A DNA stretch of 64,000 nt from Escherichia coli (GCF_045037415.1 NZ_CP173438.1), one strand, 5' to 3'. Shown: positions 6,001 to 12,000, counted from the first letter of the stretch. Made by a program: the numbers.

Positions 6001-9000
6001 TTGTCCGGCTGGACAATGTTACCGATAACAGTTACCCGTAACATTTTTAATTCTTGTATTGTGGGGGCACCACTTTGAGCACGACTAACCATGATCACCA
6101 CATTTACGTCTTGATGGGCGTATCGGGCAGCGGCAAATCTGCGGTCGCCAGTGAAGTGGCGCATCAACTTCATGCCGCGTTTCTTGATGGCGATTTCCTC
6201 CATCCGCGCTGCAATATCGAAAAAATGGCGTCTGGCGAACCGCTGAATGACGACGATCGCAAACCGTGGTTGCAGGCGCTGAACGACGCCGCGTTTGCTA
6301 TGCAGCGCACCAATAAAGTATCGCTGATCGTCTGTTCTGCACTGAAAAAACACTATCGCGACTTGCTGCGTGAAGGTAATCCTAATCTCTCTTTCATCTA
6401 CCTGAAAGGCGATTTTGATGTGATTGAAAGCCGCCTGAAAGCGCGCAAAGGCCATTTCTTTAAAACCCAAATGTTGGTGACGCAGTTTGAAACGCTGCAG
6501 GAGCCGGGTGCGGACGAAACCGATGTACTGGTGGTGGATATTGATCAACCGCTGGAAGGTGTTGTGGCAAGCACCATTGAGGTTATTAAAAAAGGCAAAT
6601 AAGTAGTGACTACATTAACGCTTGTTTTAACAGCAGTAGGGTCTGTTTTACTGCTGCTGTTTTTAGTCATGAAGGCGCGTATGCACGCTTTCCTGGCTTT
6701 AATGGTGGTGTCCATGGGGGCTGGCCTTTTTTCCGGTATGCCGCTCGATAAAATCGCAGCGACGATGGAAAAAGGGATGGGAGGCACCCTCGGCTTCCTG
6801 GCGGTGGTTGTCGCCCTGGGAGCCATGTTTGGTAAGATCTTACATGAAACCGGCGCGGTCGATCAGATTGCCGTCAAAATGCTCAAATCCTTCGGTCACA
6901 GCCGCGTGCATTATGCCATCGGCCTTGCGGGGCTGGTTTGTGCGCTACCGCTGTTCTTTGAAGTGGCGATTGTTCTGCTGATTAGCGTTGCTTTCTCAAT
7001 GGCGCGCCACACCGGCACGAACCTGGTGAAGCTGGTAATCCCATTATTCGCCGGCGTGGCGGCAGCGGCTGCGTTCCTGGTGCCTGGGCCAGCGCCAATG
7101 CTGCTGGCATCGCAGATGAACGCCGACTTTGGCTGGATGATCCTGATTGGCCTGTGCGCGGCAATTCCGGGAATGATTATTGCCGGGCCGCTGTGGGGTA
7201 ATTTCATCAGCCGCTACGTGGAGTTGCATATTCCTGACGACATCAGCGAACCGCATCTCGGCGAAGGCAAAATGCCGTCCTTCGGATTCAGCCTGTCGCT
7301 GATCCTGTTGCCACTGGTGCTGGTGGGGCTGAAAACCATTGCCGCGCGTTTTGTGCCAGAAGGTTCTACCGCTTACGAATGGTTCGAGTTTATTGGTCAT
7401 CCGTTTACCGCGATTCTGGTTGCTTGCCTGGTGGCGATTTACGGTCTGGCAATGCGTCAGGGTATGCCAAAAGACAAAGTGATGGAGATTTGCGGTCACG
7501 CGCTGCAACCGGCGGGGATCATTCTGCTGGTGATTGGTGCGGGCGGCGTGTTCAAACAGGTGCTGGTTGACTCTGGTGTCGGTCCGGCACTGGGCGAAGC
7601 GTTAACCGGCATGGGCCTGCCGATTGCCATCACCTGCTTCGTGCTGGCAGCTGCAGTGCGCATCATTCAGGGTTCTGCTACCGTTGCCTGTTTAACGGCG
7701 GTGGGATTGGTAATGCCGGTCATTGAACAACTGAACTACTCCGGTGCGCAAATGGCGGCACTGTCGATTTGTATCGCCGGTGGTTCGATTGTTGTCAGCC
7801 ACGTTAACGACGCGGGTTTCTGGTTGTTCGGTAAATTTACCGGCGCGACCGAAGCCGAAACGCTTAAAACCTGGACCATGATGGAAACCATCCTCGGCAC
7901 TGTCGGTGCCATCGTTGGGATGATTGCGTTCCAGCTGTTGAGTTAATTACTGCGACAAATTACTGCGAGCTTGCTCGCAGTAATTCATTTCTCTTTTCTC
8001 CTGTCTTCATCTTTTTGATCTCTCTCGCAAAAAGACCGGAACATTATCCGTTCTAATCACTGTGTTAACGGACGAGGGAGAAGATGATGGAGAAACACGG
8101 AGCTGAATTGCTGTTACAGCGGATGTTAAGTAACACCAGCGCTACTTTCAGGGAAGGGCAATGGGAAGCTATAGATGCGGTGGTTAATCAGCGGCGAAAA
8201 CTACTGGTTGTACAGCGCACCGGCTGGGGGAAAAGTGCCGTGTACTTCATCGCCAGTAAAATCTTCCGCGATCGCGGCGCTGGCCCGACAATTATCATCT
8301 CTCCTTTGCTTGCCCTGATGCGTAACCAGGTTGCCGCCGCTGAACGGTTAGGTATTACGGCTGAAACGTTGAATTCTACAAACAGGGAAGAATGGCAGCG
8401 CATTAGCGATAAGTTGCTGCAAGGTGGCGTAGATTGTCTGCTGATTTCACCTGAACGGTTGGCGAATCAGGATTTTCTTGAAACGGTTTTATATCCAGTC
8501 GCTGACCGCATCGGTTTACTGGTGGTCGATGAGGCGCACTGCATCTCTGATTGGGGCCACGATTTCCGCCCGGATTACCGACGTATATTAGATATTTTGC
8601 GCCAACTGCCTGCGAATACCCCTATTCTGGGTACAACCGCGACAGCGAATAACCGTGTCGTTGAGGATATCCGTCAGCAATTGGGTGACATTGTGATTCA
8701 GCGTGGAACGCTGGCTCGCGAAAGTTTGGCGCTTGATGCCTTAGTCTTAGGAGAACAGTCATCCCGTCTGGCATGGTTAGCAACGGTTATCCCTCAGTTT
8801 TCCAAATCGGGAATTGTTTATACCCTGACGACTCGCGATGCTGAACTTGTCGCCGAGTGGTTAAGGAAAAATGGTATCAGTGCATTTGCTTATTACAGCG
8901 GCGTGACTTGTGAAGGTGCGGAAGATTCTAATACTGCCAGGGAGTATCTGGAGCAGGCACTGCTGGCAAATAAAATCAAAGTGCTGGTCGCGACGACGGC

Positions 9001-12000
9001 ATTAGGTATGGGATTTGATAAACCTGATTTAGGTTTCGTCATTCATTATCAGATGCCGGGGTCTATTGTCGGTTACTACCAACAGGTGGGGCGTGCCGGG
9101 CGTGCTATAGATTCCGCAGTTGGCATATTGCTTTGTGGTGGTGAAGACCGCGCTATTCATCAATTCTTCCGTGAAAGCGCCTTTCCTGCGGAGGCGCAAA
9201 TTCATGAAATACTCAACGTACTTAGCGAGAATGACGGTCTTACCCTACGAGGCATTGAACAACGGACGAATCTTCGTTATGGGCAAATAGAAAAAGCACT
9301 GAAATTATTGGTAGCTGAAAATCCATCGCCTGTGGTGTATACCGAGAAATTATGGCGCAGAACTATCGTCAGTTTTTCTCCTGATCATGAACGAATTAAC
9401 CATTTGATGAATCAGAGAAAAAGTGAGTTGGCAGACGTTGAAAGCTATATCACGACCAAGGAGTGCAAAATGCAATTTCTGCGCCGCGCACTCGATGAGC
9501 CAAGTGCCGAACGTTGTGGTAAATGTAGCAGTTGTCTTCAGCATCCGCTGTTGTCGCCCGACATTGATAGCGACTTACTCCATGCGGCAAATTTATTTAT
9601 TAAACACGCTGACCTGCCATTAAATCTCAATAAACAGGTGGCATCTGGGGCTTTTACGCAATACGGATTTAAAGGGAACTTGCCTGCGGGTTTACAAGGA
9701 TCTACGGGGCGAATCCTTTCTCGTTGGGGAGATTCCGGGTGGGGAAAGCAGGTAGCCCAGGAGAAAAAAACGGGGCGCTTCAGTGATGAGCTGGTGGAGG
9801 CATGTGCGGAAATGGTTCGCCAACGCTGGAATCCGCATCCTGAACCCACCTGGGTATGCTGCGTTCCTTCATTAAGGCACCTCGACCTGGTTCCTGATTT
9901 TGCCCGGCGACTGGCGGCGAAACTTGGCTTACCTTTTATTGATGCCATTGAAAAAGTCGTGGACAATCCACCGCAGAAAATGCAGCAAAACCGTTTTCAC
10001 CAGTGTCAAAATCTCGACGGGGCGTTTGTGATTACCCCTCCTTTGATGCCAGGTCCGGCGTTGCTGGTTGATGATATCGTGGATTCTGCATGGACGCTGA
10101 CAGTTCTGACAGCACTGTTACGCCAGGCAGGTTGCCCGACGGTTTATCCTCTTGCCCTTGCTTCTACCTCGGTAAAAAATTGATGAATCTTTCAGCCAAT
10201 GCTCAAGCAACTCTCCTGCTAACCAGCGATTTTTCTCGCGCGGCGGCGAGTGAGTATAAACCTCTTAGTAATAGTGAATGGGGGAAGTTTGCATTATGGC
10301 TGAAGCACCAACGTATCAGTCCCGCCGAGCTTCTGGTGCCGCAACCGCAAGAGAAACTTACAGGCTGGAGCGATCCGCGTATTTCTCAGGAGCGAATTCT
10401 TGGCTTGCTGGCGCGTGGTCATAGTCTGGCGTTGGCTGTAGATAAGTGGCAACGCGCCGGTTTATGGATCTTAACCCGCGGAGATGCCGATTATCCCGTT
10501 CGCTTGAAAAACCGATTGCGAACGGATGCACCTCCCGTTTTATTTGGCTGCGGGAATAAAGCATTACTGCAAGCGGAAGGTATGGCGATTGTTGGCTCGC
10601 GAGATGCTCCGACTGACGATTTGCGCTATACCCAACAACTGGCCGCGAAACTGGCCCAACAGGGGATTTGCGTTATCTCTGGTGGTGCGCGAGGTATTGA
10701 TGAATGTGCAATGGCCTCGGCTCTGGAGGTCGGGGGAACTGCCGTTGGCGTATTAGCTGATAGCTTGTTAAAAACGAGTACGTTAGTGAAATGGCGTGAA
10801 GGGCTTATAGCAGGCAACCTGGTGTTGATTTCGCCGTTTTACCCAGAGGTACGTTTCACCGTCGGCAATGCGATGGCGCGGAATAAATATATTTATTGCC
10901 TTGCTGAAAGCGCAATGGTTGTACGTGCGGGAATGACCGGTGGAACGATAACCGGGGCGATGGAGGCATTAAAACATCAGTGGCTGCCCATGCAGGTTAA
11001 ACCAAATCAGGATATGCAATCAGCCAATTCACGATTAGTAGAAAATGGGGCGTCATGGAGTGCTGAACAGGCTGAGAATGTGACGATCAGACTGCCAGAC
11101 GTTCCTGGGCTGATGTATGACAGAGCACTCCGTAACGCTCAACCAGAACTGTTTTCGCTGCACGAAGATGACGCAAATTACGCAGTAATGCCCGCGCATA
11201 CCCCTGTCGATTTTTATCAACTCTTTGTGGCGGAACTGGCGATCCTTGCAAAGGAATCGATAAGTATTGAAAGGCTGGCGTCTTGTACTGGTTTAACCAT
11301 CGAACAAATTAGTGTGTGGCTGAACCGCGCAGAAGAAGAGGGAAGGGTTATCCGATTGGGCGAAGGTCATTATCAGTTCAGGTAATAAAACAGGTGCCGC
11401 GTCTGGTTGTGTGCAACACCTGTTTGAACCTTACCCCTTCATCCACATTCGAATGCCGTCGAGGAACATCTGAGTTGCCATCATCACCAGAATCAATCCC
11501 ATCAGGCGTTCAAGTGCGTTCACCCCTTTCTCGCCCAGCAGACGTAAAAATAGCGAAGACTGTAGCAGGATGACAAAGGTGCCGCCCCAGGCCAGCAGCA
11601 GAGCAATCACCAGATGTCCCATCTGATTCGGGTACTGGTGAGACAACAACATCAGCGTGGCGAGAATAGTCGGCCCGGCGACTAACGGAATTGCCAACGG
11701 CACGATAAATGGCTCTTCACCTGCCGGAAGCCCGCTGCTATTTCCTGAAGCGCTGGGGAAAATCATCTTAATGGCGATCAGAAACAGAATGATGCCGCCA
11801 GAAATGGAGACGGTTTCTGCCCGCAGGCTAAGAAATGCCAGAATTTTCTCGCCCGCAAACAGGAACACCAGCATCACAAGGAGAGCAATAAGCAACTCTC
11901 GCACCATGATTGCCCGCCGTCTTTTCGGTTCAGTATGTTTCAGTACGGACATGAAAATAGGTAGGTTTCCGAGCGGATCCATAATCAGGATCAATAAAAC

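Follow-up and report, generated by a model that had tools for sequence, protein, structure and literature searches.

The window analysed here is a stretch of 64,000 nt of Escherichia coli DNA (GCF_045037415.1, NZ_CP173438.1), and all coordinates count from its first letter. Between gntU, which encodes a gluconate transporter, and yhgN, the window contains a variable segment of 3,484 bp (7947–11430) that, judged by its sequence, is the already characterised RqlH/RqlI (PsyrTA) toxin–antitoxin (TA) or defence operon plus the flanking intergenic DNA that belongs to it. We conclude, with a probability of about 0.78, that two old alleles of the gntU–yhgN intergenic region exist, this segment being one of them, and that the segment is long resident, non-mobile and swapped by homologous recombination. 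The initial annotation, made from the sequence alone, had described it as an insertion between two native terminators at a defence-island hotspot. The boundaries that it assigned proved exact in the alignment to the K-12 empty site.

Two alleles of the gntU–yhgN intergenic region

The junctions were defined by alignment to the empty site of K-12 (L001). Homology to K-12 stops at the gntU stop codon (TAA, 7944–7946) and restarts at the yhgN stop codon (TTA on the plus strand, from 11431). The intergenic region of K-12 measures 56 bp, GTTTGTTCGCCCGGTAGTTGTGACGCTACCGGGTTCTTTTCGAAAAACTCTCCTCG, and shows no relationship in this alignment to the left or the right end of the 3,484-bp segment. Both junctions fall on stop codons, with no duplicated bases and without direct repeats, att-like repeats, a target-site duplication or inverted terminal repeats. 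The annotation shows no integrase, transposase or other recombinase in the segment, whose two open reading frames (ORFs) are PsyrT and PsyrA, or within 15 kb on either side, and there is no tRNA gene between positions 1 and 30000 of the window. The GC content of the module is 49.5%, compared to 52.6% and 52.0% in the 4-kb flanks, and its GC content at third codon positions (GC3) is 47%, compared to 57–64% in the flanks. These repeat, tRNA and annotation checks agree with the initial annotation, which had noted the lack of an integrase, transposase, tRNA or direct repeats nearby and a GC content slightly below that of the flanks, and had taken this pattern to speak against an autonomous mobile element. 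Recombinases, tRNA genes, att-like repeats and insertion sequences (IS) are all missing, as are the target-site duplications, the adjacent integrase and the K-12 copy of the module that it had named as contrary evidence.

To describe the distribution of the segment, we used a set of 5,426 complete E. coli genomes. The flanks matched 5,424 of these, and 1,641 carry the whole segment at gntU–yhgN. A query with the module only found 1,650 genomes (1,641 at a coverage of at least 80%, and 9 partial) with 1,659 places, all chromosomal, while the K-12 empty-site query found a contiguous empty allele in 3,774. Since the 3,774 empty and 1,650 PsyrTA-bearing genomes add up to 5,424, which is every genome with the locus, the site has strictly two alleles among these genomes, PsyrTA in ~30% and the empty allele in ~70%, and no other cargo. 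Within E. coli the site is not a multi-cargo hotspot, and the defence-island hotspot of the initial annotation has to be given up for this species, whereas the absence of the module from K-12, which it had also stated, is confirmed. In every sampled occupied genome the module lies between gntU and yhgN. No match was found on the plasmid records of the 5,426 genomes; a tblastn search against plasmids returned a closest copy with 60% amino acid identity, and one against phages returned none. Occupied genomes include Nissle 1917, ATCC 25922, O157:H7 and O103:H2, and empty ones include K-12, UM146, O111:H8 and O121, so distributed that both states presumably occur within single phylogroups.

Several comparisons bear on the age of the two alleles. 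When the window is compared with four occupied genomes from other lineages, identity is 96.9–97.7% for gntU, 94.5–97.2% for psyrT, 98.0–98.8% for psyrA and 97.8–98.5% for yhgN. The synonymous divergence (dS) between the window and strain 2c3 is 0.18 for psyrT, 0.05 for psyrA, 0.13 for gntU, 0.06 for yhgN and 0.03 for asd, and module and flank distances correlate with r = 0.92 over 10 non-independent pairs drawn from 5 occupied genomes. A recent introduction followed by spread would give a module diversity well below that of the flanks; this is not seen, and the module is therefore not recent. The word “insertion”, with the recent event that it implies, does not fit a module that has diverged like its flanks and whose positional orthologues are found in other genera. 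Age is also evident in the empty allele, as K-12 and the empty genome DEF10 differ at 4 of its 56 positions. Its sequence is common to other Escherichia and resembles a Citrobacter sequence of the repetitive extragenic palindromic (REP) type, GCCCGGTGG...CTTACCGGGC, at the same place.

Both states are also found on near-identical flanks. DEF10 is empty, yet its flanks are 99.3–99.6% identical to those of the window. Likewise, the empty K-12 and the occupied 2c3 agree at every position over 250 bp on each side of the junction and differ at only 8 positions in 4 kb to its right. It follows that the state has switched on more than one occasion. Since each allele holds sequence that is absent from the other, a simple deletion or insertion cannot interconvert them, and the change amounts to an allelic replacement. 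We infer that gain and loss by homologous allelic replacement is the best reading, in which recombination in gntU and yhgN would swap the whole intergenic allele. Such a swap would place the breakpoints exactly at the stop codons, where the homology between the alleles begins, and leave no scar. The initial annotation had likewise invoked homologous recombination in the core flanks; this part fits the 56-bp allele and the shared flank haplotypes. The hotspot within E. coli and the implied recency are not supported. According to the history that we propose, the arrival of the module at gntU–yhgN would be ancient, predating the diversification of E. coli and probably the split of these genera, and the toxin would have decayed in some lineages through pseudogene formation and IS insertions.

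Farther to the left, the window and DEF10 differ from K-12-like genomes by 193 mismatches in 1,500 bp at about 3400–4900 of the window (yhhX–yhhW–gntR), and by 131 bp in length upstream of gntR. This divergence may reflect a separate recombination or an indel polymorphism. In the empty-site genome O121 GTVSS-020 (L003), the annotation marks gntU as a pseudogene, frameshifted and with ~34 bp deleted.

The PsyrTA operon and its flanking hairpins

The segment contains two co-oriented ORFs encoding proteins of 699 and 400 aa. The 699-aa protein matches the PADLOC model of PsyrT with E = 0 over residues 3–698 of 699, and Pfam assigns to it DEAD, Helicase_C, ResIII and RecQ_Zn_bind domains and a weak Pribosyltran match (residues 606–684). 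The Walker A (GWGKS), DEAH and phosphoribosyl pyrophosphate (PRPP)-loop (VDDIVDS) motifs are intact. In RefSeq numbering, which starts psyrT at 8087 rather than at 8084 as here, DIVD is located at residue 663 and corresponds to D663 of RqlH from the extraintestinal pathogenic E. coli (ExPEC) strain F11, the position mutated in that protein (Russell & Mulvey 2015, PMC4670107). The 400-aa protein matches PADLOC PsyrA (1.4e-202), with residues 1–400 aligned to profile positions 1–397 of 398, and the Pfam families DNA_processg_A (DprA; 2e-50) and LDcluster4. The ATG of psyrA overlaps the psyrT stop codon by one base (TGATG, 10181–10185), which suggests that the two genes are translationally coupled. 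RefSeq starts psyrA at 10090, which gives a protein of 431 aa and an overlap of 94 nt with psyrT; PADLOC PsyrA aligns from residue 1 of the 400-aa product, and the RefSeq start is probably too far upstream. The overlap between the two genes in other genera is 4 nt.

The closest described system is RqlH/RqlI of F11, which shares with the window the species, the two-gene operon, the helicase–phosphoribosyltransferase (PRTase) with DIVD at 663 and the overlapping downstream DprA-like partner. Nothing substantive differs, and the locus is the same, although the text of PMC4670107 names neither gntU nor yhgN (0 occurrences). In F11, rqlH and rqlI form one co-transcribed operon, RqlH is genotoxic via its PRTase domain, and RqlI binds and neutralises RqlH (PMC4670107). 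Toxicity and neutralisation in the window would be consistent with these experiments, which were performed on the same E. coli proteins. RqlHI has been equated with the PsyrTA of Sberro et al. in a preprint by Millman et al., which places it among the TA systems that defend against phage. The full-length PADLOC matches, the architecture and the gene order are those of the PsyrTA family (Sberro 2013; Millman 2022), whose phage defence was reported for the family and not for the E. coli allele described here. ShosTA follows the same logic of a PRTase toxin and a DprA-like antitoxin, and the antitoxin here matches ShosA models (6e-27). In contrast, ShosT is without a RecQ-like helicase, and the best profiles for the window proteins are PsyrT and PsyrA, not ShosT and ShosA.

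The toxin gene is damaged in several genomes. In O157:H7 (L004/L088, locus 4687–6811), psyrT is a frameshifted pseudogene that also has an internal stop and a duplication of ~28 bp, while psyrA is intact and 99% identical; a decayed toxin beside an intact antitoxin is consistent with a growth-inhibitory, genotoxic toxin that is neutralised by its partner. One genome has an IS1 within psyrT. One genome with a 5′ deletion of psyrT retains no more than the 3′ PRTase portion, to which the annotation gives the name “ComF family protein”. The PsyrT copies of Shigella sonnei are shortened to 594–657 aa.

Each end of the segment carries a hairpin. The left one has a stem of 12–13 bp with perfect 13-nt arms (−17 kcal/mol, z = −4.8) and is called terminator-like by the scan. 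The right one reaches −21.8 kcal/mol with z = −5.0 on the yhgN (minus) strand, where it is followed by UUUUAUUA, compared to z = −2.7 on the plus strand. It probably serves as the terminator of yhgN and, less well, of psyrA, and its sequence is not kept between genera. The empty K-12 allele contains neither of them and has one different hairpin instead, GCCCGGTAG...CTACCGGG; both hairpins are thus part of the sequence specific to the occupied allele. The initial annotation correctly recognised two hairpins and was mistaken in taking them for native terminators. In particular, the left hairpin belongs to the PsyrTA-bearing allele and is not the native gntU terminator.

The left hairpin encloses a palindromic core, CTGCGAG-N4-CTCGCAG. 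Alignment across genera reveals that this core is conserved as CTGC(G/A)(A/G)G-N4-CTCGCAG, with only the Logan locus L097 deviating, at 2 positions of the 5′ arm. The outer stem covaries: both partners of 7 pairs have changed in a compensatory manner, and only 1 of 500 shuffles yields as many such pairs. The observed covariation score and percentage paired were reached by none of the 500, and the slid controls collapse. The exact palindrome pattern is present in 14 fetched loci, all with PsyrTA beside gntU, and in 0 of the 87 others, being absent from the fetched empty sites, other-cargo sites and PsyrTA loci borne by mobile genetic elements (MGEs). It occurs once in the window, with 0 occurrences expected by chance. 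The tail of the hairpin, CAUUUCUCUUUUCUCC, shows only a moderate enrichment in U and no conservation in other genera. The conservation of the invariant inner 7 bp of each arm suggests a sequence-specific role besides that of a terminator stem, the more so as the palindrome is invariant beside saturated synonymous sites. Hypothetically, it might be an operator or an insulator.

Two further ideas about these motifs were rejected. LexA boxes have the consensus CTGT-N8-ACAG, and the spacing of the left palindrome, CTG-N12-CAG, is not that of such a box. A relatedness of the two module ends, proposed from CTGCG...CGCAG in the right hairpins of other genera, was also dropped, as the motif is too short and the E. 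coli right hairpin is without it.

A sigma-70 scan found no promoter on the plus strand of the left intergenic region, and inspection by hand of its conserved blocks (a TTGAT box and a TAAAT box) gave no convincing −35/−10 spacing. Transcription of psyrTA by read-through from gntU is conceivable. The left intergenic region includes a hypervariable part at about 8040–8083, in which E. coli lineages differ. Over 8040–8086 of the window, which covers the last ~45 nt before psyrT with the ribosome-binding region and the first codons, identity between lineages is ~85–87%, compared to 95–98% in the rest of the module.

Around the segment, region 4941–15779 contains gntR, gntK, gntU, the segment, yhgN, asd and glgB in this order, according to the ORF list and the RefSeq annotation of matching genomes. 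The wider neighbourhood was read from an annotated genome that is 100% identical over the 4.6 kb queried (window 7400–12000). Only core genes occur within 15 kb on each side, namely liv, ugp, ggt, yhhYXW and gntRKU on the left, and yhgN, asd and glgBXCAP on the right.

Table 1. Features of the gntU–yhgN region in the window, and positions of a recurrent protein at the same site in loci of other genera
Feature	Position	Strand	Evidence
gntU, gluconate transporter, left core flank	6606..7946	+	ORF list, RefSeq annotation of identical or near-identical genomes, junction alignment
Module-specific left intergenic region, 137 nt	7947..8083	+	Alignment, cross-genus comparison
Left hairpin with palindromic core (7963–7980)	7958..7985	+	Terminator scan, fold, covariation, motif search
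psyrT / rqlH, RecQ-like superfamily 2 (SF2) helicase with C-terminal PRTase toxin, intact	8084..10183	+	PADLOC, Pfam, motifs
psyrA / rqlI, DprA-like antitoxin	10183..11385	+	PADLOC, Pfam, sequence
Module-specific right intergenic region with hairpin 11388–11425	11386..11430	.	Folds, cross-genus comparison
yhgN, MarC/NAAT family, right core flank	11431..12024	-	ORF list, RefSeq annotation, junction alignment
~148-aa protein, other genera	L009 9287–9733, L017 9724–10170, L023 8980–9453, L029 7154–7600, L036 9383–9823, L099 10733–11179

The site in other genera and alternative explanations

A scan with YhgN, using one genome per species, yielded 80 Enterobacteriaceae loci, most of which have a short gntU–yhgN spacer of 38–430 bp. 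In Silvania hatchlandensis, PsyrTA is present at gntU–yhgN, with 72% and 61% amino acid identity to the window proteins. PsyrT homologues with 68–74% identity were found in C. freundii and in four lineages known from metagenomic or SRA assemblies (ENA, JGI, Logan), and every member of this band that was looked up lies directly downstream of gntU. The left intergenic region measures 137 nt in E. coli and Silvania, and 140–144 nt in the other genera. A second band, at ~65% identity, is located on integrase-bearing islands, and one of its members adjoins four integrase genes and an IS91-family transposase. In a neighbour-joining tree, the gntU-linked PsyrTA copies form a deep-branching clade, restricted to Enterobacteriaceae and separate from the mobile clade.

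The mobile clade resembles the window operon in its homologous proteins (65% identity) and gene order. It differs in lying within a type I restriction–modification (R-M) operon beside an integrase, or beside integrases and an IS91-family transposase, and in having no upstream palindrome. Its members are 99–100% identical across Proteus, Alcaligenes and Pseudomonas, and such identity of PsyrT between distant genera indicates recent transfer of a recently spreading composite defence module. In Proteus terrae (L098, 4634–14743), PsyrTA is nested in the type I R-M operon in the order hsdM–hsdS–psyrT–psyrA–hsdR, on an integrase-bearing island.

The gntU–yhgN site holds other cargo in other genera. 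Kosakonia and Enterobacter sp. carry Fic/VbhT-like toxins with a small upstream partner, and a NadS-type antitoxin with a small partner also occurs. A protein of ~148 aa (M.TT..FSHSLFT.PF.H.TDFTELADNCERFVE...) recurs in the gap of several genera (Table 1) and has no NCBIfam or PHROG match. Superficieibacter has a TIGR00266 protein with neighbouring genes, and Pluralibacter a chaperone-usher-like fimbrial cluster, as judged by eye. The cargo of Huaxiibacter consists of an integrase fragment, a 483-aa protein of unknown function and two small membrane-like paralogues, which by appearance may be a toxin/immunity cluster. In Mangrovibacter, a 1,068-aa protein is accompanied by three 250-aa paralogues, and neither the 1068-aa nor the 255-aa proteins have an NCBIfam or PHROG match. 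One locus, L099, combines PsyrTA with four extra genes. At the family level, gntU–yhgN is a variable intergenic region and not a classical MGE-fed defence hotspot. In a metagenomic Enterobacteriaceae lineage with PsyrTA (L093, 9302–9661, and L094), yhgN is missing and ~360 nt separate psyrA from asd, which indicates that the right boundary has been remodelled there.

Three other accounts of the segment were weighed against that of two old alleles. In one of them, E. coli would have acquired a defence cassette recently by horizontal insertion, perhaps as an integrase-less mobile remnant, which then spread between lineages. This would explain the lower GC and GC3 of the module, its patchy presence in 30% of genomes and the existence of related PsyrTA copies on integrase-bearing or R-M islands that are nearly identical across three genera. 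We consider it very unlikely, as the module is at least as divergent between lineages (2–4%) as the flanks and its divergence follows theirs, neither mobility remnants nor repeats are present, plasmids and phages yield no close copy, and the nearest relatives occupy the same site in other genera, in a clade of their own apart from the mobile one. That the module is ancestral and that the empty state arose by simple deletion is the most improbable account of all, even though the module is old and is decaying in several lineages (the O157:H7 pseudogene, the IS1 insertion and the 5′ deletion). A deletion leaves unexplained the 56 bp of the empty allele and their own hairpin, which have no counterpart in the occupied allele. 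It also sits poorly with the occurrence of this sequence in other Escherichia, its resemblance to the Citrobacter intergenic region and the age indicated by the differences between K-12 and DEF10. Among the sampled rows, we saw no empty site that keeps fragments of the module intergenic regions.

The cross-genus data also raise the possibility of repeated site-directed capture beside gntU by an unknown trans-acting mechanism, whose target would be, for example, the REP-like hairpin in the empty allele or the hairpins of the module. The same site is occupied in at least 5 divergent lineages, the cassette boundaries lie at hairpins, synonymous divergence between genera is deeper in the module than in the flanks, and other cargo is found at the site in other genera, including the integrase fragment of Huaxiibacter. 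Yet the gntU-linked copies form a monophyletic group with left intergenic regions that are homologous in length, palindrome and further conserved blocks, which argues for common descent of the whole allele. Furthermore, no recombinase is associated with the site and the right-end hairpins are not conserved, so we regard such capture as unlikely.

Several observations weigh against two old alleles swapped by homologous recombination. Binned mismatch profiles of empty and occupied flanks reveal no recombination tract contiguous with the module, and the flank mosaicism that is present shows a pattern not tied to presence or absence. The correlation between module and flank distances comes from 5 genomes only, through pairs that are not independent. 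Between genera, the proportion of synonymous differences (pS) in the module is 0.74–0.82 and saturated, compared to a flank dS of 0.7–0.95, and this saturation means that strictly vertical co-inheritance is not proven. The between-genus excess fits either faster evolution of a gene with low codon bias (GC3 47%) or alleles older than the host splits, which are inseparable here; module alleles could also have moved between genera. E. albertii, E. fergusonii and Salmonella were outside the cross-genus sample. With regard to function, a role of the E. coli allele against phage is putative; no protection by PsyrTA was detected in a study of E. coli NILS69 in which the systems were expressed in K-12.

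A bolder extension of the two-allele reading, which we put forward only tentatively and think rather doubtful, treats gntU–yhgN as a trans-species presence/absence polymorphism maintained by balancing selection on a costly operon. Two ancient alleles, a REP-like 56-bp spacer and PsyrTA with its regulatory DNA, would then be present in several Enterobacteriaceae genera and be exchanged only by homologous recombination. The palindrome, placed directly behind the gntU stop codon, would act as a dedicated cis element and not only as a terminator, either as the operator for a C-terminal helix-turn-helix (HTH) of PsyrA/RqlI or as an insulator that determines the read-through from gntU.

Published placement and significance

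Both the system, which was characterised genetically in 2015 and is included in defence databases, and its gntU–yhgN site are already known. In their Table S3, Hochhauser et al. (2023; PMC10121019) enter “gntU-yhgN” with hotspot “No”, MGE “None”, PsyrTA, 3,486 bp and 2 genes. The gntU–yhgN rows include ATCC 25922 and O157:H7 SS52, and PsyrTA is mentioned at least 54 times in the file (PMC10121019). In their pipeline, islands of three genes or fewer were counted as empty (PMC10121019), and this island-size rule may be why gntU–yhgN is not among their 41 hotspots. Like the MGE-borne defence hotspots of E. coli described there, gntU–yhgN is a place between core genes where a defence-type system is variably present. 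It differs from them in its single cargo in E. coli, in the lack of mobility genes and in being listed as not a hotspot and without an MGE in the entries cited above.

The window contains a second accessory block without mobility genes, between glgP and glpD (23077–26072). It encodes a 505-aa protein whose resemblance to the PstS family falls below the NCBIfam cut-off, together with two hypothetical proteins (255 and 201 aa). No protein of the block has a PADLOC match.

The value of the present analysis as a discovery is small, since operon and location had both been published. It lies rather in a correction: the whole intergenic region is replaced allelically, and the segment is old and non-mobile, not an insertion between native terminators. 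In contrast to the general rule that E. coli defence systems are carried by mobile elements, gntU–yhgN offers a clean example of how some defence or TA systems of this species are long-resident chromosomal alleles and not MGE cargo. The strict biallelism of the site, its positional conservation across genera and the palindrome of the module provide handles on the regulation of the operon and on the population genetics of its gain and loss.

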